Shown: positions 2,526 through 23,987 of the stretch, in pieces
Position numbering within the stretch: the stretch's first letter is position 1
How the letters are laid out: each line of letters opens with the position of its first letter
From: Bryobacterales bacterium
GTDB taxonomy: Bacteria; Acidobacteriota; Terriglobia; Bryobacterales; UBA6623
DNA: 64,000 bases
Direction of reading: 5' to 3'
Assembly: GCA_965216215.1 (NCBI GenBank)
Contig: CBDCFO010000006.1
Span: 89,870-153,869, forward strand
Made by a program: the position numbers and the translations under genes
Notes under the pieces: generated by a model
What the model was told of the DNA's origin: nothing
What the model saw: the letters and a program-made list of their open reading frames with translations, nothing else
Database searches by the model: none

Positions 2526-2951
2526 ATGTTCGGACGCGACAGCACAGACAGGAAAGAGCACCTCAAAGACCCCTACCCGGGGCTGTTCCAGAACCCGCCC
2601 CTGCTGTATCCGGAATTCGATGTCGACAAGCGCTTGCCCCTGGTCCGCTACCGGATCCTGGTCGACGGCGAGCAGGACGCGGCGGGCGAGTTCCATTGCG
2701 ACCACCTGTCCGCCCTCAGCACCGCCACCGGTATGCTTCACGCGGGGCGGTACGCACCGTTGGGCAAGCGCCTGGCTGAGGTCGAAGTCTGCGATGCGGA
2801 CGGAAACCCGCTCGGCCGCGACAAGCAGGTCCGCACCAGGGTGGCCGGCCAGAAGACGGTCCAGTGGCAAAGTTCGCTCGACCGCGTCGAGCGATCCTAC
2901 CGGACCGCGGCCACGGTTCGGGCGCTGGGTCCCCCCGCGTCGAGCCGCTAG
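2526..2951 (+). CDS. Hypothetical protein (141 aa)
   Basis: ATG at 2526 preceded by GGAG 6 nt upstream. The upstream part of track ORF 2208-2951 lies inside the IS right end and is not credible. No recognisable domain. The stop overlaps the convergent pentapeptide gene stop (CTAG). Confidence 0.5.
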   Translation: MFGRDSTDRKEHLKDPYPGLFQNPPLLYPEFDVDKRLPLVRYRILVDGEQDAAGEFHCDHLSALSTATGMLHAGRYAPLGKRLAEVEVCDADGNPLGRDKQVRTRVAGQKTVQWQSSLDRVERSYRTAATVRALGPPASSR

Positions 2952-3931
2952 CGCTCCAGCCCGGGCAGCATCCTGGCCCGCTCGGGCAGCTTCGCCGATC
3001 GCGGCAGCTTCGCGCCGTCACGGCTGGCCCCTTCGAGCTTCGCCCCCTCCATCCGCGCCCCGGAGAGCCGGCTGCCAGCCAGGTTGGACTCGCGCAGGTC
3101 CGCGCCGGTCAGGTCCGGCCCCCGCCGCCCGGGCGCTTTGGCACCCGCGAGCACCACCCCTCGCGCCCGGATCTCGCGCATGTCCGTGTTTTCCAGGTTG
3201 GCGTGGTGCAGGTTGGCGCCCGCCGCGTTGGCGCGCGTCATGCGCGCGTTGGTGAGATCGGCCTGCCCGAGGTTGGTGCCGCGCACCGAGGCGTCCTCGA
3301 GCACGGCGCTGCGCAGGTCCGCATGGCGCAGGTCCGTCCGCTGGCCTCCGCTCTGCTGGAAGAGCGCCTCGGAGAAGTCCGTCCCGACGGCCCGGATGCC
3401 GTACATCCGCGCCCCGTCGAACCCCGCCGCACGGCCGTCAGCCCCGCTGAAGTCGGCCGCTCCCAAGTCGGCGTTGGAGAAGTCGGCGTGCGACATCCGC
3501 ACATCGGTGAACCGCGCGCCATAGGCGACGGCTTCGCAGAGCGACGCCCTATGAAGATCTGCCCCGTCAAGACGGGCGTCGACCAGCCTGGCACCGTCCA
3601 GATTGGCACCTTCGAGCCGCGTGCCGCGCAACCGCGCGTCCGTCAGGTTCGCTCCCCGCAGGTCGGCCTGCCAGAGGTCCGCGCTTTCGAGCTGTGCCCC
3701 GGCGAGCCGGGCGCCACGCAGGTCAGCGCCTCGAAGGTTCAGGTTCGACAGGTTCAGCCGCTCGAGGTTGAAACCCCGCAGGTCCGCCTTGCGGCCGTCC
3801 TCCCCGCCGGTTTTGAGCCAGACCTGGTGGTCGGCGACGATCTTGCGCAGCTCCTCCGCGCGCTTGGCGTCGACGATCTTCTCCGCGACGATGTCGGCGA
3901 ACTGCTGCAGCGCCCGCTCCTCTCCCGGCAT
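2948..3931 (-). CDS. Pentapeptide-repeat protein, last gene of the T4SS operon
   Basis: About 270 aa of tandem A(D/N)LxX pentapeptides (ADLRGFNLERLNLSNLNLRGADLRGARLAGAQLESADLWQADLRGANL...). GGAGG SD upstream of ATG 3931, 9 nt after the virB11 stop. Confidence 0.9.
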   Translation of the reverse strand: MPGEERALQQFADIVAEKIVDAKRAEELRKIVADHQVWLKTGGEDGRKADLRGFNLERLNLSNLNLRGADLRGARLAGAQLESADLWQADLRGANLTDARLRGTRLEGANLDGARLVDARLDGADLHRASLCEAVAYGARFTDVRMSHADFSNADLGAADFSGADGRAAGFDGARMYGIRAVGTDFSEALFQQSGGQRTDLRHADLRSAVLEDASVRGTNLGQADLTNARMTRANAAGANLHHANLENTDMREIRARGVVLAGAKAPGRRGPDLTGADLRESNLAGSRLSGARMEGAKLEGASRDGAKLPRSAKLPERARMLPGLER

Positions 3932-3940
3932 GGCCGTCCA

Positions 3941-4945
3941 TCACCTCCCGGGCCGCGGCCAGAAGCGCCGCGTTTCCCAGCCGTCCCCCTGCGCCCTCAG
4001 GACGTGCACGGCCGAGGACACCCCGCGCCGCCCGTCCCGCCGCTCGACATGCACCACGAAATCGATCGCCTGGGCGACCTGCATGCACAGCACGGGCCAG
4101 GAGATTCCCTCGCTCCCCTGCAGGGCGCAGGAGGCGAGCCGCACCAGCGCGCTCTCGGCGTCGTTGGAGTGGATCGTGCTCAACGACCCCCCGTGGCCCG
4201 TGTTCAGCGCCTGGATCAGGTCCGCGGCCTCGCCCCCGCGCACCTCGCCCAGGATCAGGCGGTCCGGCCGGTGCCGCAGCGAGGCCCTGACCAGGTCCCG
4301 GATGGACAGCCCGGACCCGGTCAGCTCGCGCGCCTCCATCTGCAGCAGGTTCGATGCCTGGAGCTGGATCTCCGTGGTGTCCTCGATCACGAGGATCCGC
4401 TCGTCGTCCGGGATGACTCCGGCGAGCGCCTGCAGCAGCGTGGTCTTGCCGCTCCCCGTCCCGCCGGCAATCAGGATGTTGCGTCGCGCGCGGAGGTGCT
4501 CGGCAGCCTCCGCGTAGACGGCCGCCGGCAGGGACCCGGCCGCGACCAGGTCCTCGGCGCTGAACTGCCGCCCCCCGAAACGGCGGATGGTGATGGCCGC
4601 GTGCTGCACGACGGGAGGCAGCGCGATGGCGACGCGCGAGCCGTCGTCCAGCCGGGCGTCGACGATCGGGACCTTCTCGCCGGCCTCCAGGCCGAGCGGT
4701 CGCGCGATATGGATCGCGGCCGCGTAGATGTCCCCGACCGTCAGCCCGGCGGCCGCGACCTCGACCGGCTGGCCCCCGTCGCGCTCGACGAAGTACTTGC
4801 CGGGCCCGTTGATCATGAGCTCGCTGACGGTCTCGTCCTGGAATGCCTCCCGTACCACCTCGGGCAGCAGGGACATGACGCGGTCAAGCGCCGGCATCAG
4901 GGCCACCCGCCGCGGGCGTCCCGCGGCCTTCGCGTTGCAGTGCAA
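3941..4945 (-). CDS. virB11: VirB11/TrbB-type T4SS traffic ATPase
   Basis: Walker A GGTGSGKTT, Walker B ILVIEDTTE, RHRPDRLILGEVRGGEA and NTGHGGSLSTIHSN motifs. TTG start abuts the virD4 stop. An alternative ATG is at 4897. Confidence 0.9.
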   Translation of the reverse strand: MHCNAKAAGRPRRVALMPALDRVMSLLPEVVREAFQDETVSELMINGPGKYFVERDGGQPVEVAAAGLTVGDIYAAAIHIARPLGLEAGEKVPIVDARLDDGSRVAIALPPVVQHAAITIRRFGGRQFSAEDLVAAGSLPAAVYAEAAEHLRARRNILIAGGTGSGKTTLLQALAGVIPDDERILVIEDTTEIQLQASNLLQMEARELTGSGLSIRDLVRASLRHRPDRLILGEVRGGEAADLIQALNTGHGGSLSTIHSNDAESALVRLASCALQGSEGISWPVLCMQVAQAIDFVVHVERRDGRRGVSSAVHVLRAQGDGWETRRFWPRPGR

Positions 4946-6979
4946 TCATCCGTTCTCTCCTTTCGCGCCCAGCGCGCCCTCGCGAAGCGCCTGCCAGTAG
5001 GGCTTGTCCGCCGGCAGGAAATAGGGCTTCAGATACACCCGCCTGGCGGCCATCGCGTTGCAGCCGTCGAACGGGATCACGATTGCCTGGCAGGTGCCGA
5101 GCGCTTCGAAGTCGTTGGGGTGGAACCGGGGCTCGCGGCGGCCCTGGTAGGACCTGCCGGCGCCCATGCTGGCACGGGCGCCCCCGGCCTTGCCGCTCAG
5201 CAGCGAGACGCCCGCCTGCGAGGTGTTCTCGCTGAAGTTGTAGCTGGCCTTCAGGCGTTCCACGGTGCCGCACATCTCGGATGCGGCCTTGGAGGTGTCA
5301 GGGTCGGCCGAGGTCAGGAATACCCGCGTCCGGAACGACTGCAGCAGCGTCTTCCACGCGTCGCCCCGCGTCGCGCTCTTCAGGGAAGAGATCGACTGCG
5401 TGGCCACGATCGGCACCACCCGCGACTGGCGTGTCAGGGGGAACGCCTTCTCGTCGCCTTGCGGCTCGTCCTCGCCGACCGTCGCGAACGACTGGTACTC
5501 GTCGCAGACGAAGACAGCCGGCCGCCAGTAGCGGTCCGGCTGGGCGGCCATGTCGGCGGGCCGCCGCAGGGCCGCCTGCAGCCAGGCCCCCTTGAGCATG
5601 ACGCCGACCGCGCGAGCCAGTGCGGGGCTCGTCCCGGCCGGCATGTTCAGGCAGAGCACCGTGCCGTTCTCGATCAGCTCGCGCAGCCGGGGCAGCGGCT
5701 GCAGCAGCGCGGGGACGACCCCGCTGAACGTCGCCCCTTCCTCCGGGACCTCGCCGGCGGCCGGCGGGCCGGGACAGAACACTCGGGCGACCTCCGGCTG
5801 GTCGAAGATCCCCAGGAACGACGAGATGCCCTCCACGACCGACGTCCGCAGCTTGCCGTCGAGCTTCCGCCAGTCCTTCTCGAGCCACAGCTCGAACGCG
5901 GCAAGGCGCCCCTCGGCGTCGGCAGCGACAGGCGGACTGGAGGGCCGCTCGCGCTTCGCCGCGATGCCGGCCTCCTCGAGGGTGTCGAGCAGGCCGCGCG
6001 TCATGGCCGCGGAGAGACTGTCCCCCTCGCGGGCCCAGGGTCCGAACCGCTGAAGGGCGGCAACCCGCGGAGCGAAGTCCTCCGCCCGGACCGTCACGCG
6101 CATGGCCGGCTCGTCCCGCACGTCGGCGCACGCCTGCACCAGGCGGCTGCTCAGCAGGCCGCTGTCGATCGCGCACCGGTACAGGTCGCGGAGCGTCACC
6201 CAGCGGCTGCTGTGGATGCGGTGCAGCTCGATCAGGTTCCGCAGCAGATTGGTCGAGGCCTGCTGCCAGAACGGCTCCTTGCCCTTGCCGAAGAGCTGGT
6301 TGAGCAGCGAGCTCAGCTGGTACGCCAGCGAATAGGAATCGACCTCGGGCGCGTCGAGCGGGTTCCACTGCCACCGGCCGCCGATGCCGATCTCGGCGTA
6401 GTCGCCCTCCCGCTGGCAGGCCTTGAGAATGGCGCGGACGTGGTGGCAGAAGTCGCCCTTGACCTCGAGCACCAGACCGCTCGCCCGCTTGTCCGGATCG
6501 GCGGCCTGCCAGCTGAAGAGCTGCGCGACGAACGGCCGCATGCAGGCGGCCGTCTTGCCGGAGCCCGTGGCCCCGAAAATAGCGGTCCCGGTGAAGAGGC
6601 CCGCAGCGGGGACCGTCAGCCATGTCGGCCGCTCGACCTCGACGGGATCCACCGGGTGGTGCTGCTCTCCGATGACGATGGCGGGCTCGGCCTCCCGGCC
6701 GCTGAGCGGCCACTCGGGGAGCGTGCCGCGGACAGCGGCGGGGCTGCCGCGCGGCCCCCACACATCCCAGGCCGACAAGGCGAAAGAGCCGGCGACGCCG
6801 ACGCCGGCCGCCGGCCAGGCCCAGCCCCACAGCCAGAACGCCCAGTACAGCGCCGGATCGTAGACCGCGACCAGGTCCAGCGCAGGCGCCTCCCCGGGAG
6901 CGGGCCAGGGCCAGAAGCGCCAGCGCGCCAGGACAGCCACCGCGCCGAAGGCCGCCCAGGCCAGCGCTCGCGGCGTCAT
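4946..6979 (-). CDS. virD4: VirD4/TraG-type type IV coupling protein
   Basis: N-terminal TM segments, Walker A FGATGSGKTAAC, VFVCDEYQSF Walker B and a TraG/TraD-like C-terminal region (VPIVATQSISSLKS). I chose the start at ATG 6979 (MTPRALAW...). The track ORF extends to 7237 through a lower-GC, repeat-rich non-coding stretch. Confidence 0.85.
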   Translation of the reverse strand: MTPRALAWAAFGAVAVLARWRFWPWPAPGEAPALDLVAVYDPALYWAFWLWGWAWPAAGVGVAGSFALSAWDVWGPRGSPAAVRGTLPEWPLSGREAEPAIVIGEQHHPVDPVEVERPTWLTVPAAGLFTGTAIFGATGSGKTAACMRPFVAQLFSWQAADPDKRASGLVLEVKGDFCHHVRAILKACQREGDYAEIGIGGRWQWNPLDAPEVDSYSLAYQLSSLLNQLFGKGKEPFWQQASTNLLRNLIELHRIHSSRWVTLRDLYRCAIDSGLLSSRLVQACADVRDEPAMRVTVRAEDFAPRVAALQRFGPWAREGDSLSAAMTRGLLDTLEEAGIAAKRERPSSPPVAADAEGRLAAFELWLEKDWRKLDGKLRTSVVEGISSFLGIFDQPEVARVFCPGPPAAGEVPEEGATFSGVVPALLQPLPRLRELIENGTVLCLNMPAGTSPALARAVGVMLKGAWLQAALRRPADMAAQPDRYWRPAVFVCDEYQSFATVGEDEPQGDEKAFPLTRQSRVVPIVATQSISSLKSATRGDAWKTLLQSFRTRVFLTSADPDTSKAASEMCGTVERLKASYNFSENTSQAGVSLLSGKAGGARASMGAGRSYQGRREPRFHPNDFEALGTCQAIVIPFDGCNAMAARRVYLKPYFLPADKPYWQALREGALGAKGENG

Positions 6980-7027
6980 CGCGAAGCCCCCGGGGCGTAG
7001 CGGCCGCCTTCCCGCAGGGATGAATTC

Positions 7028-7275: not shown

Positions 7276-8220
7276 TCAGCGCCCCGTCGGCCCCAACCCG
7301 GCCAGCAGCGCGTGAACCTCGTCCGGACGGACCCTGTCCTGGCGCCCGCGGCCAGAAATCTCGCGCTTCCGCTGCAACTCGGCGACCCGCTTGATCGCGC
7401 CGTTCAGCCCGCCCCACTTCGACATTGCGACATCGTCGAGCGCAGCCAGGGCTCGTTCGGCGACCTTCAGTTCCTCGAGTAGGGCATTACTCATCCGCGC
7501 TGCAGGCCCCTGAATCCCGCGCTCTTTCCACCTGGTCAGGACACGCGCGGCACCCGTCACGCGCTCACCGGACGCACTTACCGCAACCACCTCCACGCGC
7601 ACGCCGCGCTCGGCAAGCGCGGACCACAGGGAGGCGTGCTCCGCACCCCAGGAGAGCAGCTCGTCATGCGTCTCGCCTCCCGTGTCGACATAAACGAACC
7701 GAGCGATGCCATCCCCGAACGCGACGGGCATTTTCCACCCGAACGGGCGCACGGTCCGTCCCCCTTTCGGCGATCCATAGATGCGTCTCGGGAACGCCTT
7801 GCGTTCGATTCCAAGAGCTTCGAATGCCGCCACTTTCTCTTGTTCGGTGGGCAGCCAGGAACGATTGAGATCGCCGAGCACGCAGTCCAGTGACAGCAGG
7901 CGGCGGAGCACCGTGTCCGCTGCGGCGTCCTTGCGGTGCCGGATGTGCTCGGCGCCGAGGACTCGGTAGACAGCGCGGGCATACAGCCTGCAGACCCGTC
8001 CGAGACCAGGCGAATCGCATTCCACCGCGATTCCGTTTTGCAGCAGGGAATCGACAAGTCGATGCGCTGGCACCCTCGAACGGACGCCACGGAACCGCCC
8101 GTACTGCGAGCGCAGGAAGACGCCGCTGTGCAGCGCGACCAGCGCGATCCACTCCGCCTCCCTGGGCTTGAAGCCGAGTTCCTCGACGGCCTTCTCGCGG
8201 CCCTGCAGATGCGCGATCAC
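7276..8220 (-). CDS. Hypothetical protein (314 aa), replication-relaxation-like (tentative)
   Basis: GTG start at 8220 overlaps the upstream stop (GTGA). The sequence VIAHLQGREKAVEELGFKPREAEWIALVALHSGVFLRSQY...RRLLSLDCVLGD...FVYVDTGGETHDEL is protein-like. The first ~290 aa of track ORF 7276-9090 are an R/G/P-rich out-of-frame artefact. Confidence 0.6.
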   Translation of the reverse strand: MIAHLQGREKAVEELGFKPREAEWIALVALHSGVFLRSQYGRFRGVRSRVPAHRLVDSLLQNGIAVECDSPGLGRVCRLYARAVYRVLGAEHIRHRKDAAADTVLRRLLSLDCVLGDLNRSWLPTEQEKVAAFEALGIERKAFPRRIYGSPKGGRTVRPFGWKMPVAFGDGIARFVYVDTGGETHDELLSWGAEHASLWSALAERGVRVEVVAVSASGERVTGAARVLTRWKERGIQGPAARMSNALLEELKVAERALAALDDVAMSKWGGLNGAIKRVAELQRKREISGRGRQDRVRPDEVHALLAGLGPTGR

Positions 8221-9083
8221 AGCTCGAGCAGCCCTCCGTCGCCGCCGCGTCCGCCACCACCTCCGCCGCCTCCGCGGCCCTCGAGGGCCGCCAGGTCGAG
8301 CTTGCGCCGCGCGCGCCCGTCCGCGGCGTGCATGCGGAACCCCGCCGCGAGCTTCGCGGAGATCTCCTTGGCGCGATAGTGTCCGGTCGCGACCTCGACG
8401 TTGACGCGCCCCCCGCGGCCCTCCGCGTCGACGTACTCGATCTGCAGGTCCGGATAGATCACCTTGCCGTCCACGACCGGCACCCCCAGCGCCTTGGCCG
8501 CCGCCTGCTTGACCCGCTCGGCGGCCTCGCGCCCGGACCGGGCGCGGGCCTTCTCCGCGGCCTTGGCGACCGCCGACTTGAGTTCGGAGTCGCAGCGGAT
8601 CCGCCGCACCGTCGCGCCTTCCCCCTCGAGCTTCCGGCACTCCTCCCGCCCGGCCCGGTAGACCGCGCCCTCGTGCGATGCCTCGCGCGCCTTCACGCGG
8701 CCGCCCCAGTAGCGCTGCCCGGGATCCAGCGGCTCGCGACGCTGGCCGGCGGCCTCGCGCCGGCCGGCCTGGGTGAGGTGCAGGACCTTGAACGGCCGGC
8801 CCTTCGGCCCCCGCGCGGAGAACTCCTCGACCAGGCCGCGCCGCTTGAGCTCGTCGATCCCGCGCCGCGCGGCGTAGGGATGGCCACCGAAGCGCTCGGC
8901 CGCGATGTCCGCCACCGCCGCGCAGCGGTAGATCCCGAGATCCTCCAGGGTCCGCCCCTGGCGCGTGGCGAAGCTGGCGCGCTCGCGTCGCGGGTCGTGT
9001 TCCCGGGGGTGTCCGGTCCGCCCCGGGTTCGCCCGGCCCCGGCCCTGCCGGCGGTCCCGCTCGACCTGCTGCGCCCGGCTCAC
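8217..9083 (-). CDS. wHTH protein (288 aa), replication-relaxation (Replic_Relax)-like, Gly-rich C-terminus
   Basis: GTG 9083 overlaps the trbL stop (GTGA). It has LEDLGIYRCAAVADIAAERFGGHPYAARRGIDELKRRGLVEEF...FKVLHLTQAGR (winged helix) and then YPDLQIEYVD...VNVEVATGHY (PD-ExK-like). It ends in GGGGGGGGRGGDGG. Confidence 0.65.
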   Translation of the reverse strand: MSRAQQVERDRRQGRGRANPGRTGHPREHDPRRERASFATRQGRTLEDLGIYRCAAVADIAAERFGGHPYAARRGIDELKRRGLVEEFSARGPKGRPFKVLHLTQAGRREAAGQRREPLDPGQRYWGGRVKAREASHEGAVYRAGREECRKLEGEGATVRRIRCDSELKSAVAKAAEKARARSGREAAERVKQAAAKALGVPVVDGKVIYPDLQIEYVDAEGRGGRVNVEVATGHYRAKEISAKLAAGFRMHAADGRARRKLDLAALEGRGGGGGGGGRGGDGGLLEL

Positions 9084-9934
9084 CGGCCACCCCGCAGCGC
9101 TGCCGACCCCTTGACCATGACAGCCGCCTTGCCGGCCGTCGCGGTGGCCGCCAGCGCTCCCAGCATGCCGCCTCCGCTGACGCTGCCGGAGACCAGGCCG
9201 GACGCCAGTTCCGGGATCTTGAACGTGGCCAGGATCCCGGCCAGGGCGAGCGCGATATACGACACGATCCACATCAGCGCCGCGCCGAGGGCGGACAGGT
9301 CGGGCGTGAGCGACTCCCAGATGCCGTCGCTGGCCGCTCGCACCGCTGCCAGGAAGACGCGCAGGACGCAGGCGGCGACCGCCGAGTACAGCGAGTACGT
9401 CAGCAGCGTCCGCAGCCACCCCCAGAAGAGGAAAGCGAGCGGCTCGAAGAGCAGGAACGGCACGAAGATCGGCCCGAGGGCGACGGCCACCGCGATCGCG
9501 AACTGGGCCCAGATCACCTGGGCGTAGCTCAACAGCACCAGCAGCAGCGAGACGATCGCCATGAACACCGCCAGGACCGCCAGCACGGCGCCGGCGATCA
9601 GGTTGCCGCCCATCGCCCCTATGTTGAATATCCAGAAGATGCCCCAGTCGCTCGCCGACGCGATCGCTTCGGTGAACGCCCGCGTGACGAACCCCCCGAG
9701 CCACCTCCAGGTCGACGAGTAGCTGTCGCGGGTAACCGTGTCGGCGACCCACGAGCCCATGCCCACGATCGCCTCCGGCAAGGTCAGCCCGCCCACGGGC
9801 ATCGGCGTGTCGTAGTAGAACAGGATCGTCCGCGGGACCATGATGGCCGTCACCAGCCGCACGATATCCCAGCCCGAAAAGCCGCCGCCGGAGAAGGCGA
9901 TCCGCACCCCGGTCCAGACGATGACGATCGCCGC
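9080..9934 (-). pseudogene. trbL: trbL/virB6 C-terminal fragment (disrupted by transposon insertion)
   Basis: Polytopic membrane protein (…IVIVWTGVRIAFSGGGFSGWDIVRLVTAIMV...LGPIFVPFLLFEPLAFLFWGWLRTLLTYSLYSAVAACV...). The frame stays open upstream to 9934 and then enters the transposon end. The track lists only 9080-9907, from an internal GTG. Confidence 0.8.
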
Positions 9935-10221
9935 GTGTTGTTTCCCACAACGATTCGTTGAATCGTCACGATCTTGAATCGGATTGTCTCGTGGCGGATC
10001 GGGTGGGAAAGCGGGTCAATCTGGTACGGAGAGCCGTGTCGTAGGGCGAGAGCGGCGGTCGCGAAGCTGACCAGGCCGGGGCTCAAAGGGAGGCACTGAT
10101 CGCCGTCAGGGGCGGCGTGTGCCGTGGATGGCGGCCGGGGTGCGGATCACGCAGGAACCGGGCCGGCCGCACTGCGATTGCGTTCAGCGAGCCGGCCCGG
10201 TTGAATAGGGTGGCCCGCGCG

Positions 10222-10878
10222 ATGGCAACTCGCCGGGCCGTGGGCGGCGTTATCCAGTTTCTGTACGGCACGGACCTCACCGCCGAGGACTACGTTAAGC
10301 GCCAGGCGTGGTGGGATGCAAGCCCGCCCGAGTGTCCCTACCATCCGCAGGGCGGCTGCGGACTGGTGCCGCACGGGACCTATGGTCGCAAAACCCCGAC
10401 CGGCACGCGGGTGCGGCGGTTCCTGTGCCCGGGATCGGGGCGGACGGTCAGCATGCTGCCGCGCTGCCTGGCGGCGCACTGGTCCGGGACGGTGGCGGAA
10501 GTCGAGCGGGTCGTGCGGGAGGCGGGCAAGGCGCAGAGCCTGGAAGAGGCGGCGAACCGGCTGCGCACGGACCACGTCAGCCTGGCCTCGGCGCTGCGCT
10601 GGGTGCGGCGGCGCGTACAGGCTGTGCGGGCGTTCCTGACGGTAGTGCGCACGATCTGTCCGGAGCGTTTCGGGCAGCTGGAGCCGAGCCTGGAGGCGTT
10701 CGGGGCCACGCTGGGCAGCGCGGCGGTCCTGCCGCGCCTGCGGGTGGTCGCGGAGCAGCGGCTGGGGTCGCTGCCGGCCCCGGTCGGCTTCTTCCGCCAG
10801 TGGCGCAAGGCGGGAATTCGCGGCCCGGCCCACGCCCCACACGCGCATGGTCTGGACCCCCCGCCGCCGACCGCCTAG
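10222..10878 (+). CDS. Hypothetical Cys/His-rich protein (218 aa), transposon gene 1
   Basis: ATG 10222 (MATRRAVGGVIQFLYG...). It has a CPYHPQGGCGLVPHG...RRFLCPGSG putative zinc-ribbon-like segment followed by a helical region. No confident family. Confidence 0.55.
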   Translation: MATRRAVGGVIQFLYGTDLTAEDYVKRQAWWDASPPECPYHPQGGCGLVPHGTYGRKTPTGTRVRRFLCPGSGRTVSMLPRCLAAHWSGTVAEVERVVREAGKAQSLEEAANRLRTDHVSLASALRWVRRRVQAVRAFLTVVRTICPERFGQLEPSLEAFGATLGSAAVLPRLRVVAEQRLGSLPAPVGFFRQWRKAGIRGPAHAPHAHGLDPPPPTA

Positions 10879-10924
10879 CTTGGGGGAACAGGCCGTCCGG
10901 CCACCCTTGCCAGGAGCGATTGCC

Positions 10925-12280
10925 ATGCCCGACATCGAAAACGACCCCCGCCGCGAAGTAGCCCTGTTCCGCTACGGCGTCATTGCGGAACTGCTGTGCC
11001 TGCCCGCCGGGTCGCCCGAGCGCTGGGCGGCCATGCGGGCCAAGGCCGCGCTCGCCCACGCCATTCCCGGCAGCTACCGCACCCGCGTCGCCGTCGAAAC
11101 CATGCGCGACTGGATCGCGCACTACGAGCGAGGCGGCTTCGAAGCGCTCTATCCCAAGCTCCGCGCGGACCGCGGCCGGACGCGGCAGCTGCCGCCCGCA
11201 GTCGCCGAGTTGCTGGTCGGCATCAAGGAGCGCCAGCCGCATCTGTCCGTCCGCGAGGTCATCCTCCAGGCCCGCGCCAGCGTCCCCCGCGAGGTGCTGC
11301 TGGCACCGTCCAGCGTCAACCGCCTGCTCCACCGCGAGGGGCTGATGGAGCGCGCCGACGAGCAGCCCGAGCCCAAGGACCGGCGCCGCTTCGCCTACCG
11401 CCTGGCCTCCGAATTGTGGATGAGCGATGTCATGCACGGCCCCCCGGTCGGCAGCGACAGCGGCGACCGCCGCCGCCGCGCCAAATCCTACTTGATCGCC
11501 TTCATTGATGACGCCACCCGCCTCGTGCCCCACGCCGCCTTCACCCTCTCCGAGAATGCCGCCACGTTCCTGCCCGTCTTCAAGCAGGCCCTCCTCAAGC
11601 GCGGCCTGCCGACTCGCTTGTATGTCGATAACGGCAGCAATTACCGCTGCCAGCACCTGGCCGTGATCTGCGCCACGCTCGGCATCAATTTGATCCATGC
11701 GACCGCTTACCAGCCTCAGGGGAAAGGCAAGATCGAAAGATTTTTCCGCACCTGCAGAGCGCAGCTGCTGCCCGCCTTGGGTGTTGACGACACCCGCAGC
11801 CTCGACGCGCTCAACGCCCGCCTCGCCGCCTGGATCGAGGGCGAGTACCATCTCAGCCCCCACCGCGGCCTCGACGGCAGGACCCCGCTCGAGAGCTGGT
11901 CCCGCAGCGCCTCCAGCGTCCGCCTGGTCGGACCGGAAACCGATCTCGACACGCTTTTCCGCTTCCGCCTCAAGCGCCGCGTCAGCAAGGACCGCACCGT
12001 CAGCCTGCTCGGCACCCTCTACGAGGTCGATGCCGCGCTCGTCGGCGAGAACATCCTCCTGCTGCACGACCCCTCCGTGCCGCGCTCGCGGCCCATCCCG
12101 GTGCTGCATGCGGGCCGCCAGGCCGGCCAGGCGACCCTCCTCGACGCGTATGCCAACACCCGCGTCAAACGCACCCGCGCGACGAACCGCCCCGACCAAG
12201 CCGTCGATCCCGCGCCCGCGCCGCAGCCCTCCCCCCTGCGCCTGCGCGCACTCCGCGCCCCCTGCCAGGAGCACGACTGA
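10925..12280 (+). CDS. DDE transposase, TnsB/MuA/TniA-like (HTH + rve core + Mu-transposase-C-like tail)
   Basis: AGGAG SD before ATG 10925. Candidate DDE triad in YLIAFIDDATR, LYVDNGSNY and QPQGKGKIERFF. The C-terminal DRTVSLLGTLYEVD... resembles the Mu transposase C-terminal barrel. Confidence 0.85.
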   Translation: MPDIENDPRREVALFRYGVIAELLCLPAGSPERWAAMRAKAALAHAIPGSYRTRVAVETMRDWIAHYERGGFEALYPKLRADRGRTRQLPPAVAELLVGIKERQPHLSVREVILQARASVPREVLLAPSSVNRLLHREGLMERADEQPEPKDRRRFAYRLASELWMSDVMHGPPVGSDSGDRRRRAKSYLIAFIDDATRLVPHAAFTLSENAATFLPVFKQALLKRGLPTRLYVDNGSNYRCQHLAVICATLGINLIHATAYQPQGKGKIERFFRTCRAQLLPALGVDDTRSLDALNARLAAWIEGEYHLSPHRGLDGRTPLESWSRSASSVRLVGPETDLDTLFRFRLKRRVSKDRTVSLLGTLYEVDAALVGENILLLHDPSVPRSRPIPVLHAGRQAGQATLLDAYANTRVKRTRATNRPDQAVDPAPAPQPSPLRLRALRAPCQEHD

Positions 12281-13080
12281 TGTACCTGTCCCACTTCGCC
12301 CTCTCCCGCTTCCCCTTCGAGCATGCCGCCCACCCCGACGAGCTGTTCGCCTCCCGCGCCGCCAGCGAGACCGAGACGCGCCTCCAGCATCTGCTCGAAC
12401 TGCGCGGCATCGGCCTGCTCACCGGCGAGGTCGGCTGCGGCAAGACCAGCGTCTGCCGCCGCGTCACCGCCGCCTTGCATCCCGGCCTGCACCGCGTCTA
12501 TTACGTGGCGCTTTCGACCGGATCCGTGCTCGACACCTACCAGGCGATCGCCTGGGAGCTCGGCCTCGCCAGCGTGCGCACCCGCGCCGCCGCCTACCGC
12601 GAGATCCGCACCGAGCTCTCGCGCCTCGTCCGCGAGTGCAAGCAACTCCCCGTGCTCGTCATCGACGAGGCGCACCACCTGCGCAACGACGTGCTCGAGG
12701 ATTTGCGCTTGCTCACCAATTTCCAGATGGACTCCGAGCACCGCCTGTGCCTGCTGCTCGTCGGCCTCACCGAGCTGCGCCGCCGCCTCTCCATGGCCGT
12801 CCACGAATCCCTCGCCCAGCGGCTCGTCGTGCGCCAGCACCTGGCCGGCCTCGACCGCGACGAGCTCGAGCCCTATCTCGCCCACCGCCTCGGCCTGGCC
12901 GGCTGCCAGCTCCCGCTGTTCGCGCCGCCCGCCCAAGAGGCCCTCTTCCAGGTCTCCCGCGGCCTGCCCCGGCAGGTCAACCGCTACGCCCACTACGCCC
13001 TCGTCGCGGCCGCCCTCGACAACGCTCGCACCGTCTCCGGCGAGCATCTCGAGCGCAGTTGCCAGGAGCTGGCCAAGTGA
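12280..13080 (+). CDS. AAA_22 / ExeA / TniB-like ATPase (266 aa)
   Basis: Walker A LLTGEVGCGKTS, Walker B PVLVIDEAHHL and the ExeA-like N-terminus MYLSHFALSRFPF. The start overlaps the transposase stop (TGATG). Confidence 0.85.
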   Translation: MYLSHFALSRFPFEHAAHPDELFASRAASETETRLQHLLELRGIGLLTGEVGCGKTSVCRRVTAALHPGLHRVYYVALSTGSVLDTYQAIAWELGLASVRTRAAAYREIRTELSRLVRECKQLPVLVIDEAHHLRNDVLEDLRLLTNFQMDSEHRLCLLLVGLTELRRRLSMAVHESLAQRLVVRQHLAGLDRDELEPYLAHRLGLAGCQLPLFAPPAQEALFQVSRGLPRQVNRYAHYALVAAALDNARTVSGEHLERSCQELAK

Positions 13081-13997
13081 GCCCCGCGACCGCCACGCCG
13101 CGCTGGACCGCCCGCGCCGACGGCGTCCGCGCGGCCCCGCTCGAACCGCTCGCCGTCCAGCTCGGCTACCGCCCCGACCCGCGCAACCCGGCCCGCTGGA
13201 AACGCCCTGGCTCGGTCCTCAGCATCACCGGCACGCGCTTCTTCGACCACCACCGCGGCGGCGGCGGCGGCGGTGCCATCGACCTCGTCATGCACGCCCG
13301 CGGCTGCCGCTTCCGCGCGGCCGTCGAGTTCCTCGAAAGCTGCCTCGGCCGCCGCCCCGCCCCCGCCGCGCCGCCGCCGGCCAGCCCGTCCGCGCCCCCA
13401 GCCACGCTCGCCAACTTGCAGCTCCCGCCCCGCGACGACCGCCTCTGGCCGCCCGTGCGCGACTTCCTCGTCACCGCCCGCCGCCTCGATCCCGGCCTGC
13501 TCGACCTCTGCCGTCAGGATGGCCTGCTCTACGCCGATCACCGCCGCAACGCCGTCTTCCTCTGCCATGACCCCCGGCGCCAGCCGACCGGTGCCGAGAT
13601 CGTCGGCACCCGCCCCGCTCCCGACGGCCGCACCTTCAAGGGCATGGCTCCCGGCTCCCGCAAGGCCCGCGGCGGCTTCTGGCTGCCCGCGCCCACTGCC
13701 GAGCTCGACGCGCTCTTGCTCGTCGAGAGTGCCCTCGACGCCCTCTCGGCGGTCCGCCTGCTGGCTCCCTCCCTGCCGCCCGACACGCTCGTCGCCTCCA
13801 CCGCCGGCCTTGTCTCCGCTCTCCCCCGCTGGCTGCAAGCCTTCCACGCTCCCCGCACCATCTGCGCCTACGATGCCGACCCTGCCGGCGACCAAGCCGC
13901 CGCCGCCCTCCGCCGCCACACTGCCAACTGCACGCGCCTCCGGCCTGTCGGCGCCAAGGACTGGAACGACTTGCTACGCCGTGCCCCCAGACGCTAG
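13077..13997 (+). CDS. DUF3991 + Toprim domain protein (306 aa)
   Basis: GTG 13077 overlaps the ATPase stop (GTGA). FFDHHRGGGGGGAIDLVMHARGCRFRAAVEFLE is DUF3991-like. LLLVESALDALS ... ICAYDADPAGDQAA is a Toprim E...DxD signature. The upstream part of track ORF 11697-13997 is an artefact. Confidence 0.75.
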   Translation: MSPATATPRWTARADGVRAAPLEPLAVQLGYRPDPRNPARWKRPGSVLSITGTRFFDHHRGGGGGGAIDLVMHARGCRFRAAVEFLESCLGRRPAPAAPPPASPSAPPATLANLQLPPRDDRLWPPVRDFLVTARRLDPGLLDLCRQDGLLYADHRRNAVFLCHDPRRQPTGAEIVGTRPAPDGRTFKGMAPGSRKARGGFWLPAPTAELDALLLVESALDALSAVRLLAPSLPPDTLVASTAGLVSALPRWLQAFHAPRTICAYDADPAGDQAAAALRRHTANCTRLRPVGAKDWNDLLRRAPRR

Positions 13998-14224
13998 CCC
14001 CTCCTCCGCACCGCGATCAACTGCAACATCGCCAGCCCTCGACCCGGCCGCAACACCCCGCCTCTCTCTGCTACTAGAAAACCCCGCCGCCGACCCCCTC
14101 CTCTCACGCGCACCCAACACTCCCCTCAACTCCTTCCTGCAGTAGCGAATCTACTTGAAAAATCTCCGCTTCAACTGCAGAAATAGCGTGGGATTCGCCT
14201 AGCGAAATAGCTTGGGAAACAACA

Positions 14225-14374
14225 CGCGAGGCCCTCCCACATCTGCTCTCCCGCGCCCAGCAGGGGCGCGGCGATGTCGGCCAGCAGGTCCTCCGTCAGG
14301 CTGTCCAGCATGGCCTTGATCGCCCCGGGGTCGTTCGAGTGGATCTGCTGGGCCCGGGTAAGGTCGACCTGCAT
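14225..14374 (-). pseudogene. trbL: trbL/virB6 N-terminal fragment (50 codons) cut by the transposon
   Basis: ATG 14374 gives MQVDLTRAQQIHSNDPGAIKAMLDSLTEDLLADIAAPLLGAGEQMWEGLA. Reading then enters the transposon right end (CCFPSYF...stop at 14171). Confidence 0.75.
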
Positions 14375-22184: not shown

Positions 22185-23987
22185 CTAGGCTTCGGTATGT
22201 ACCAGAATCTCGCCGGCGTCGTCGAGGTCGCGAGCTGCTGGTGTGATGATCGTATGCTTTGCTACGTAGATCTTTGCGCCGGTGTGGATCGCCTTGCGCA
22301 TGTCGCCCTCGCAGACAAAGCTCACTGGTCGGATCACGGGTGCCGGTGGCGGTGGATTCTGAGCCGTCGGTTCAGCACGTGCCGTCGGCTGTGGCGGTGT
22401 CGTCGAACTTCTGGCATTCAGGAACCGGTCGACGACGGTAGCTACGGCGGAGTGCCCGCCCGCGGTTTGCGTTGCCGGTCTCGCAGTTTGCACACCGCGT
22501 TGCGCGAGGTACCGATCAACTCGCTCCGATACCCCCGCAGGGTGTCTTGACTCGCTAGCCCCGGCGGAGAAGTCGCGTCCGCTCTTGACCGAAGCAAAAT
22601 ACTTCTTGGCCTCGTCGCTCACGAAGGCCTCTTCCGGGGAGCGGATGTAGCGAGCAATCCGCTTGACGTGCAAGAGGTGCATTGGACCGATGTTGTCACC
22701 TGTTGAATTGCCTGCGATCGCCCCGCAGCCAAGCGTCATCGAGGGGAACACGCCGGTGGTGATGCCCGTCGACCCCTGCGGAGCCGACGTATTGACGAGC
22801 ACCCGGAATGCCGGAGCCCGACGGCCGTACTCCAGAATGTTGGCGTCGTCCTGCGAGTGGATGACGCAGGTGTGACCGCGACCCCCGAAATTCAGGATCG
22901 AGACGCAGGCGTCGACTGCTTGCTCGAAGGTGTCGGTAAAGTAGACCGAGAGAACGGGAGAGAGCTTTTCTGCGGACAGCGGGTGCTCGCGCCCGACGCC
23001 ATTGATCTCAAGCGCCAGGATGCGCGTCTGGACTGGCACTTCGAATCCGGCCAAGCGCCCCAATTCCTGGGGGGACTGACCGACGCAGTCGGCCTGGATG
23101 CGGAAGTCCTCGGTGAAGAGCCTGGCTCCCAGGGCCCGGGCTTGGTCGTCGTTGCAGACGAGAGCGCCGTTCGCTTTGAGCGCGGACCATATCCTGTCGC
23201 GATGTTGCCGGTTCACGACCAGCGTCTGCTCGCTTGAGCACACCGTGCCGAAATCGAAGGACTTTCCGTCCACGATCGATGCCACCGCGGACTCGATGTC
23301 AGCGCTGTCGTCCACCAGGACCGGCACGTTGCCTGCACCTACTCCCAAGGCTGGCTTGCCGCTGGAATATGCTGCCCGAACGATTCCGGCACCGCCCGTT
23401 GACAGGATGATGCCCACGCGCCTATGCCGCATCAATTCGTTTGTGCCGGCAATCGTGGCTTCATCCACGCATTGTACAAGCCCCTTTGGCGCCCCTGCAG
23501 CCTCGGCGGCCTCGGCTAGGAGACGCGCCGATTCGCAGGTGCACCGACGAGCCCGCGGGTGCGGGCTGATCACGATGGCGTTGCCTGCCTTGACGGAGAT
23601 CAGGCACTTGAAGAAAGCAGTCGATGTTGGGTTTGTGGTCGGCAGAACGGCTGCCACGACACCCACTGGCACGCCAATCTCGGTGATGCCGAGTTCGGGC
23701 CGTTCCGCGAGGACTCCGATCGTCTTGAGGGGTGCGATCTTCTGGTGCAGAAGATCCGAATTCAGCAAGTTCTTGGCGATCTTGTCCCGGACGTTTCCGT
23801 AACCGGTTTCTTCAACGGCCAATCTTGCGAGTGGCTCGGCGTGGGCGCGAGCCGTCGCCGCCATGCTCGCTACGATCGCGTCAACCTGCTCCTGGGAGAA
23901 GCGTTCGAACGCACGAGACGCCTCGTAGGCTGCCTGAACCTTGGTGCGAACCTCTTGAATGGATCGCAGATCCCGATCTTCAAGCAT
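22185..23987 (-). CDS. CoA-acylating aldehyde dehydrogenase (EutE/PduP class) with a ~155-aa C-terminal extension
   Basis: 600 aa. Catalytic FGTVCSSEQ, and MLEDRDLRSIQEVRTKVQAAYEA... is typical of BMC-type AldDH. The core ends near residue 445, followed by a low-complexity region with two repeated amphipathic motifs and a ~48-aa terminal domain. Confidence 0.9.
   Translation of the reverse strand: MLEDRDLRSIQEVRTKVQAAYEASRAFERFSQEQVDAIVASMAATARAHAEPLARLAVEETGYGNVRDKIAKNLLNSDLLHQKIAPLKTIGVLAERPELGITEIGVPVGVVAAVLPTTNPTSTAFFKCLISVKAGNAIVISPHPRARRCTCESARLLAEAAEAAGAPKGLVQCVDEATIAGTNELMRHRRVGIILSTGGAGIVRAAYSSGKPALGVGAGNVPVLVDDSADIESAVASIVDGKSFDFGTVCSSEQTLVVNRQHRDRIWSALKANGALVCNDDQARALGARLFTEDFRIQADCVGQSPQELGRLAGFEVPVQTRILALEINGVGREHPLSAEKLSPVLSVYFTDTFEQAVDACVSILNFGGRGHTCVIHSQDDANILEYGRRAPAFRVLVNTSAPQGSTGITTGVFPSMTLGCGAIAGNSTGDNIGPMHLLHVKRIARYIRSPEEAFVSDEAKKYFASVKSGRDFSAGASESRHPAGVSERVDRYLAQRGVQTARPATQTAGGHSAVATVVDRFLNARSSTTPPQPTARAEPTAQNPPPPAPVIRPVSFVCEGDMRKAIHTGAKIYVAKHTIITPAARDLDDAGEILVHTEA

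Follow-up and report, generated by a model that had tools for sequence, protein, structure and literature searches.

An IS481/TnsB-like unit transposon with an AAA+ ATPase gene in a trbL/virB6 gene of a Bryobacterales type IV secretion cluster

Closest described systems

Proteins of the TrbL/VirB6 family (PF04610) are inner-membrane channel components of type IV secretion systems (T4SS) of the VirB/Trb type, and they are required in the VirB and Trb systems that have been studied. Here we describe a gene of this family that is split by a 4289-bp transposon. The gene lies in a stretch of 64,000 nt, referred to below as the window, from a Bryobacterales bacterium (GCA_965216215.1, contig CBDCFO010000006.1, positions 89,870-153,869 of the forward strand). 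The reconstructed gene resembles described trbL/virB6 genes both in the long hydrophobic core of its product and in its place within a cluster of VirB2, VirB3, VirB4, VirB9, VirB10, VirD4-like and VirB11-like genes, but differs from them in being interrupted after codon 50. Close relatives of the window TrbL are confined to metagenome-assembled genomes (MAGs) of Bryobacterales, Acidobacteriota, and Gemmatimonadota, and we know of no experimental study of any of them.

The transposon combines features of several described groups. With the IS481 family it shares TGT...ACA ends and an rve-type DD35E transposase core, and the IS481 model (NF033577) is the best match of its transposase among the NCBIfam models of insertion sequence (IS) families, the score of 193.7 bits being below the curated cut-off of 224. 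Published features of the IS481 family agree in part with the window element, namely the TGT ends, the TGTTG terminus, which is also that of TnRErm46/ISRe46, and a target-site duplication of variable length, 2-15 bp and mostly 6 bp (PMC6794481; PMC10045372; PMC11406308). In contrast, a classic IS481 element is approximately 1 kb long and has one open reading frame (ORF), whereas the window element carries four co-oriented genes, one of them encoding an AAA+ ATPase, and shows no CTAG target preference.

A transposase gene followed by an ATPase gene (for a protein of 266 amino acids in the window) is the arrangement of Mu A/B, Tn7 TnsB/TnsC, Tn5053 TniA/TniB, and Tn552 p480/p271. The best matches in the PDB are TnsB for the transposase (E = 4e-6) and MuB for the ATPase (8xvb, E = 4.9e-5, its sole match), and the matches in PHROGs are the A and B proteins of transposable phages (transposase, PHROG 310, E = 1.6e-42; 'DNA transposition protein', PHROG 296, E = 1.1e-22). 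The ATPase also matches Pfam TniB under the cut-off (E = 4.6e-4). Further likenesses to this group are the TGT...ACA ends, a modal duplication of 5 bp, and the Mu-transposase C-terminal domain PF09299, recorded for many relatives of the transposase and not for the window protein itself. However, a TnsA-like endonuclease, a resolvase, or TniQ (PF06527)/TnsD was not matched in Pfam or NCBIfam by any of the four element proteins, and the window element has a gene for a putative DUF6431 protein upstream of the pair and, as a trait of its subgroup, a gene for a Toprim protein downstream. Mu and Tn7 are both much larger, and both duplicate 5 bp, in contrast to 4-7 bp in the family of the window element, where the length varies even among identical copies.

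IS21, too, has two components, the DDE transposase IstA and the AAA+ ATPase IstB; its ends are TG...CA, and its duplications measure at least 4 bp. The window ATPase differs in belonging to AAA_22, PF01695 (IstB_IS21) not being among its Pfam matches, and the transposase reaches only 33.7 bits on the IS21 model NF033546 (cut-off 160).

Insertion site and restored gene

The element (71% G+C) is bounded by perfect 12-bp inverted repeats, each flanked on its outer side by CGCG; the positions given for all four segments in the original prediction, which was made by reading the sequence, proved correct to the base (Table 1). The terminal 12-mer has exactly two exact copies in the window, and the likeness between the two ends of the element is limited to these 12 bp. 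By itself, a 12-bp inverted repeat is not significant in 64 kb; the insertion is significant because uninterrupted loci break at 9935/14225 and because the termini of further copies of the element fall on the same bases.

Table 1. Features of the interrupted trbL/virB6 locus (positions in the window)
Feature	Position	Strand	Evidence
trbL/virB6, C-terminal fragment	9080..9931	-	Residues 51-333 of the reconstructed protein and stop; Pfam TrbL match; colinear with intact homologs
Target-site duplication, left copy, CGCG	9932..9935	.	4-nt overlap of alignment blocks against empty sites L090-L093
Whole transposon, 4289 bp	9936..14224	+	100% identical copies L004 and L008; repeat contigs start exactly at 9936
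Left terminal inverted repeat, TGTTGTTTCCCA	9936..9947	+	TGTTGT terminus common to 8 related element groups
orf1, Cys/His zinc-ribbon protein, putative divergent DUF6431 member, 218 aa	10222..10878	+	218-aa gene in other assemblies; profile alignment
tnpA, DDE transposase with HTH_32 and rve core, 451 aa	10925..12280	+	Pfam rve, HTH_32, rve_3
tnpB, AAA+ ATPase (AAA_22), MuB/TniB-like transposase partner, 266 aa	12280..13080	+	Pfam AAA_22, E = 1e-25
Fourth gene, DUF3991 and Toprim protein, accessory, 306 aa	13077..13997	+	Pfam DUF3991, Toprim_2
Right terminal inverted repeat, TGGGAAACAACA	14213..14224	+	Exact reverse complement of TGTTGTTTCCCA
Target-site duplication, right copy, CGCG	14225..14228	.	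Sequence and empty-site alignments
trbL/virB6, N-terminal fragment, residues 1-50 (MQVDL...EQMWEGLA)	14225..14374	-	Aligns to N-termini of intact homologs
ORF upstream of trbL, 258 aa	14411-15187	-	Signal-peptide-like N-terminus, Ala/Gln-rich helical region
VirD4-like gene, 763 aa	4946-7237		

The genes of the transposon are oriented opposite to trbL. On the minus strand, the frame that opens with the ATG at 14374 encodes the first 50 TrbL residues up to ...EQMWEGLA, enters the element as had been predicted, and after 17 element codons ends with a stop at 14171. The frame of the C-terminal part, which ends at 9080, was said to be open upstream to 9934; so it is, and it in fact continues for approximately 28 codons farther into the element, where it has no start codon, the earliest possible start being the GTG at 9907. 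Four excision models were built, and a single ORF was obtained only when 9936-14224 was removed together with one CGCG copy (4293 nt). This deletion had been proposed to restore the frame, which it does, with a product of 333 rather than approximately 334 amino acids. Each of the other models (a 16-bp repeat without a duplication, a 2-bp duplication, and retention of both CGCG copies) breaks the trbL frame, the failure of the first having been foreseen.

The joined protein of 333 amino acids matches Pfam TrbL with 55.3 bits (cut-off 25.9), profile positions 2-212 of 215 corresponding to its residues 51-279. A database search with the joined protein returned 305 relatives, the best of which, P0001, is equal in length and shows 97% identity at 100% query coverage. 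Aligned with 27 intact homologs (37-97% identity), the joint between EGLA and AIVIVW shows neither a gap nor an extra residue, and the residues G48, L49, and A50 before it and W56 and T57 after it are invariant or nearly so among these homologs.

Empty sites were found in related genomes. Four uninterrupted loci (L090-L093), all from Bryobacterales/Acidobacteriota, were compared with the window. The alignment of the window with the locus encoding P0001 (L090, identical with L001; OZ252099.1, from a Bryobacterales MAG) falls into two blocks with ends at 14225 and 9935, and in the intact locus these blocks overlap by 4 nt. The break at 9935/14225 and the 4-nt overlap are identical in L091, L092, and L093. 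A single CGCG is present at the site in all four loci and in L094, and L091 matches the predicted excision product without a difference over 68 nt. Empty sites with one CGCG are the classical proof of insertion with a 4-bp target-site duplication.

The same boundaries are seen in other copies of the element. The transposase protein is 100% identical on the 14 contigs examined. A 4289-bp copy in L004 (2071-6359), 100% identical to the window element, lies in a different context between 5-bp duplications GCCGG; a 99.9% identical copy in L002 (4012-8303) is flanked by 6-bp duplications CACGGG; L008 holds a copy with yet another flank, and L003 a copy without the first 7 nt. Four short-read repeat contigs (L007-L010) begin exactly at element base 1; L007 and L008 both measure 4344 nt (4289 + 55). 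Identical copies elsewhere and exactly shared starts thus identify the boundaries as those of a mobile unit. The left trbL junction is reproduced with 100% identity in L005, and the right junction in L006 and L007, all from assemblies of different samples. An exact search with the 30-nt left end gave no match in GTDB representative genomes, and the element at the identity level of the window occurs in metagenome assemblies only.

The original proposal of a transposon that splits trbL/virB6 with a 4-bp duplication is therefore borne out by the Pfam match, the homolog alignment, the empty sites, and the termini shared by the other copies. We are highly confident that a 4289-bp unit transposon inserted at codons 50/51 of a trbL/virB6 gene within a VirB/Trb-type T4SS cluster, duplicating CGCG. 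The element itself is intact, with a complete DD35E triad and Walker A and B motifs, and this, together with the identical copies at other loci, implies recent activity.

Consequences for the secretion system and alternative explanations

Apart from the split trbL, the T4SS cluster is complete. All its genes lie on the minus strand, in the order RepA_C, VirB2 (TrbC/VirB2), VirB3, VirB4, VirB9 (CagX/VirB9), VirB10 (TrbI/VirB10), the 258-aa ORF, trbL, two ORFs, the VirD4-like gene, and the VirB11-like gene (T2SSE/VirB11-like). The 258-aa ORF directly upstream of trbL was called trbJ in the original prediction, a label for a putative TrbJ/VirB5 protein that is supported by the position of the gene; its product has no match in Pfam (E up to 10), NCBIfam, or PDB sequences. 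The first of the two ORFs downstream of trbL (288 amino acids, 8217-9083, minus strand) resembles Replic_Relax (E = 0.016) and PadR (E = 0.011) at sub-threshold scores and might encode a protein with which the conjugative module processes DNA. A 600-aa ORF (22185-23987, minus strand) that neighbours the RepA_C gene matches aldehyde dehydrogenase with residues 11-273 (profile positions 29-292 of 461) and may be truncated or fused. Long frames antisense to the T4SS genes, such as 2864-7000 on the plus strand, extend up to 1378 codons; they are due to the G+C content of 65-75% and are not genes.

As split, trbL would yield a fragment of 67 amino acids and, at the most, an N-terminally truncated product of 275, and the oppositely transcribed 4.3-kb insert probably prevents the closely spaced genes downstream, i.e., the two ORFs and the VirD4-like and VirB11-like genes, from being expressed. 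Given that VirB6/TrbL is needed in the studied systems and that these genes are tightly packed behind an opposite insert, loss of the function of the cluster is likely, and this copy of the T4SS is probably non-functional unless complemented.

The opposite outcome, a real insertion that is harmless, with the T4SS kept working by a truncated TrbL translated from the GTG at 9907 or by a second trbL gene, appears unlikely to us. The 275-aa ORF from GTG 9907 does retain most of the Pfam TrbL domain; however, it is without the first 58 residues, and with them it loses the nearly invariant W46, G48, L49, A50, W56, and T57 as well as the beginning of the first hydrophobic segment. Its expression would depend on a newly formed promoter and ribosome-binding site in or near the transposon end, none of which was detected in a scan. 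In support of a second gene, the chromosome OZ252099.1 of a close relative carries two paralogous T4SS clusters, L090 (at 4.60 Mb) and L092 (at 2.47 Mb), with TrbL proteins 100 and 96% identical to P0001, respectively, but no second cluster is present in the 64-kb window. The VirD4-like gene of the relative's locus with intact trbL (L001:13104-18581) is itself truncated, encoding 521 amino acids as compared with 763 in the window, and is followed by IS110 and two IS1595 transposase genes. Thus, homologous T4SS clusters carry different IS lesions.

No observation speaks against the insertion itself, but some parts of the explanation are weaker. The 4-bp duplication of the window is real, yet it is a minority length in the family of the element, seen in 5 of 43 copies with a mode of 5 bp. 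The chemistry of transposition and the role of the ATPase are suggested by homology with other systems, and the same is true for any role of the putative DUF6431 zinc-ribbon protein and the Toprim protein, which are conserved accessories. A scan for sigma-70 promoters and terminators in and around the element gave nothing beyond chance, and since such a scan may not suit Acidobacteriota, the polar effect of the insert is presumed. Finally, a second paralogous cluster, as found in the close relative OZ252099.1, could complement the split gene in trans.

An assembly artefact, in which a multi-copy repeat was mis-threaded through a trbL gene that is really intact, is very improbable. The element is indeed multi-copy, short-read assemblies collapse its copies into repeat contigs of approximately 4.3-4.5 kb with mixed flanks, and L005 and L006 both connect a single trbL flank with that of another locus. 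Nonetheless, independent assemblies from different samples contain both trbL junctions without a mismatch (L005 the left one, L006 and L007 the right one), so that the insertion is not an assembly error, and a mis-join would not produce flanks sharing a 4-bp duplication that the empty sites contain once. The reading of the ends as 16-bp inverted repeats CGCGTGTTGTTTCCCA, with a target duplication either absent or of 2 bp, after which excision would not restore trbL, is permitted by the window copy alone, CGCG being palindromic, but it is already refuted by the empty sites, which retain exactly one CGCG, by the identical copies flanked by GCCGG and CACGGG, which place CGCG outside the element, and by the broken frame in both of its variants.

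Genes of the element and the transposon family

The first gene, orf1, is conserved in all relatives examined and encodes a protein with the Cys/His motif CPYHPQGGC...HG.Y.R...R..CP. Direct searches with the protein gave no match in Pfam (even at E = 10), NCBIfam, or PHROGs. A profile of its family aligned at 94% probability (E = 9e-8) with a protein of Geobacillus pGS18, in its DUF6431 (PF20020) region, and less strongly, at 65%, with a Cupriavidus DUF6431 protein. The DUF6431 genes of Geobacillus pGS18 and Cupriavidus pBB2 are located directly upstream of a related pair of transposase and AAA ATPase genes, as orf1 is. That the orf1 product is a target selector of the TniQ kind was considered and not retained: its AlphaFold model, with a predicted local distance difference test (pLDDT) score of 83, gave nothing meaningful in a Foldseek search of the PDB (best E = 0.045, template-modelling (TM) values below 0.25). 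The product may act as a regulator or in the choice of target.

The transposase TnpA has the intact catalytic triad D168, D235, and E271. The start of tnpB overlaps the stop codon of tnpA, and its product contains the Walker A motif GEVGCGKTS and the Walker B motif VLVIDEAH. In the fourth protein, which has no match among PDB sequences, the E217 and DxD motifs are present.

Immediately internal to the terminal 12 bp, each end also carries short repeats of its own. On the left (9951-9981), TTGAATCG occurs twice, 16 nt apart, along with the palindrome CGATTCGTTGAATCG, and on the right (14164-14211) GCTATTTC occurs twice, 24 nt apart. These end-specific elements may be protein-binding sites. Internal copies of the terminal 12- or 14-mer, as putative sub-terminal transposase sites, were not found at up to 4 mismatches.

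A scan of species-representative genomes revealed 77 loci with related elements, and the relatives are multi-copy in many MAGs. The multi-copy loci allowed the boundaries of 43 copies to be derived; these fall into eight element groups, whose hosts are Bryobacterales, several Gammaproteobacteria, Spirochaetia, and 'Ca. Azophilus'. Every one of the 43 begins with TGTTGT and finishes with ACAACA. The length of the duplication is 5 bp in 23 copies, 6 bp in 7, 4 bp in 5, and 7 bp in 3; the flanks of the remaining 5 do not match. Duplications of 4, 5, and 6 bp occur among copies 99.9-100% identical to the window element, the window copy included, and hence the target stagger of the transposase is not fixed.

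The core of the family is formed by orf1, tnpA, and tnpB, a total of 3.4-3.6 kb, and these three genes are conserved in all relatives examined. The Toprim gene is found in four groups of the Bryobacterales type (4.2-4.4 kb) and is absent from the 3.4-3.6-kb relatives. Its product is 58-72% identical in three other subgroups, which have different ends, and its divergence parallels that of the other genes; the Toprim gene is thus a stable part of these elements and not a chance passenger. A divergent four-gene relative was observed 46 bp downstream of an intact trbL gene (L093:7043-11363; OZ242259.1, a Bryobacterales MAG). Its proteins are 47% (Orf1), 52% (TnpA), 62% (TnpB), and 58% (Toprim) identical to those of the window element, and it starts with TGTTGAATTCC and ends with GGGATTCAACA. 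It is a second, independent insertion of this kind of transposon beside the same T4SS gene, and its position may reflect either chance or a target preference.

By analogy with the described systems, the TnsB/MuA- and IS481-like DDE transposase would pair the TGTTGT...ACAACA ends and join their 3' OH groups to staggered positions of the target, while the MuB/TniB-like AAA+ ATPase would capture the target DNA or activate either the target or the transposase. Repair of the staggered gaps would then give rise to the duplication, usually of 5 bp in the family and of 4 bp in the window. Because a TnsA-like nuclease and a resolvase are not present, one may speculate that the element moves by a replicative or copy-out route, or that the Toprim protein fills the missing step in the larger elements.

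A literature search on DUF6431 and on IS481-like transposases with an AAA+ partner yielded no paper on this type of element, for which a named ISfinder or TnCentral entry may exist. The orf1-tnpA-tnpB(-Toprim) family is widespread and, it appears, uncharacterised. A more far-reaching proposal is that these elements form a distinct, experimentally uncharacterised family between IS481 and Mu/Tn7, in which the zinc-ribbon protein helps to choose the target or acts as a regulator, the Toprim protein replaces the TnsA/resolvase function (second-strand processing, priming, or cointegrate handling), and conjugative T4SS modules are possibly preferred as targets; as a whole, we regard this proposal as doubtful.

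The interruption of trbL is an ordinary case of insertional inactivation and, as such, routine biology, the transposon family being the more interesting part. For annotation, the two trbL fragments represent one gene disrupted by a mobile element, and the T4SS/conjugative module is best treated as probably defective and decaying. With an exact empty site and several identical copies, the window element can serve well as a reference in the definition of a transposon family that is under-described, widespread, and multi-copy and in which an IS481/TnsB-like transposase is paired with a MuB-like ATPase; it also documents the variable length of the duplication in this family.

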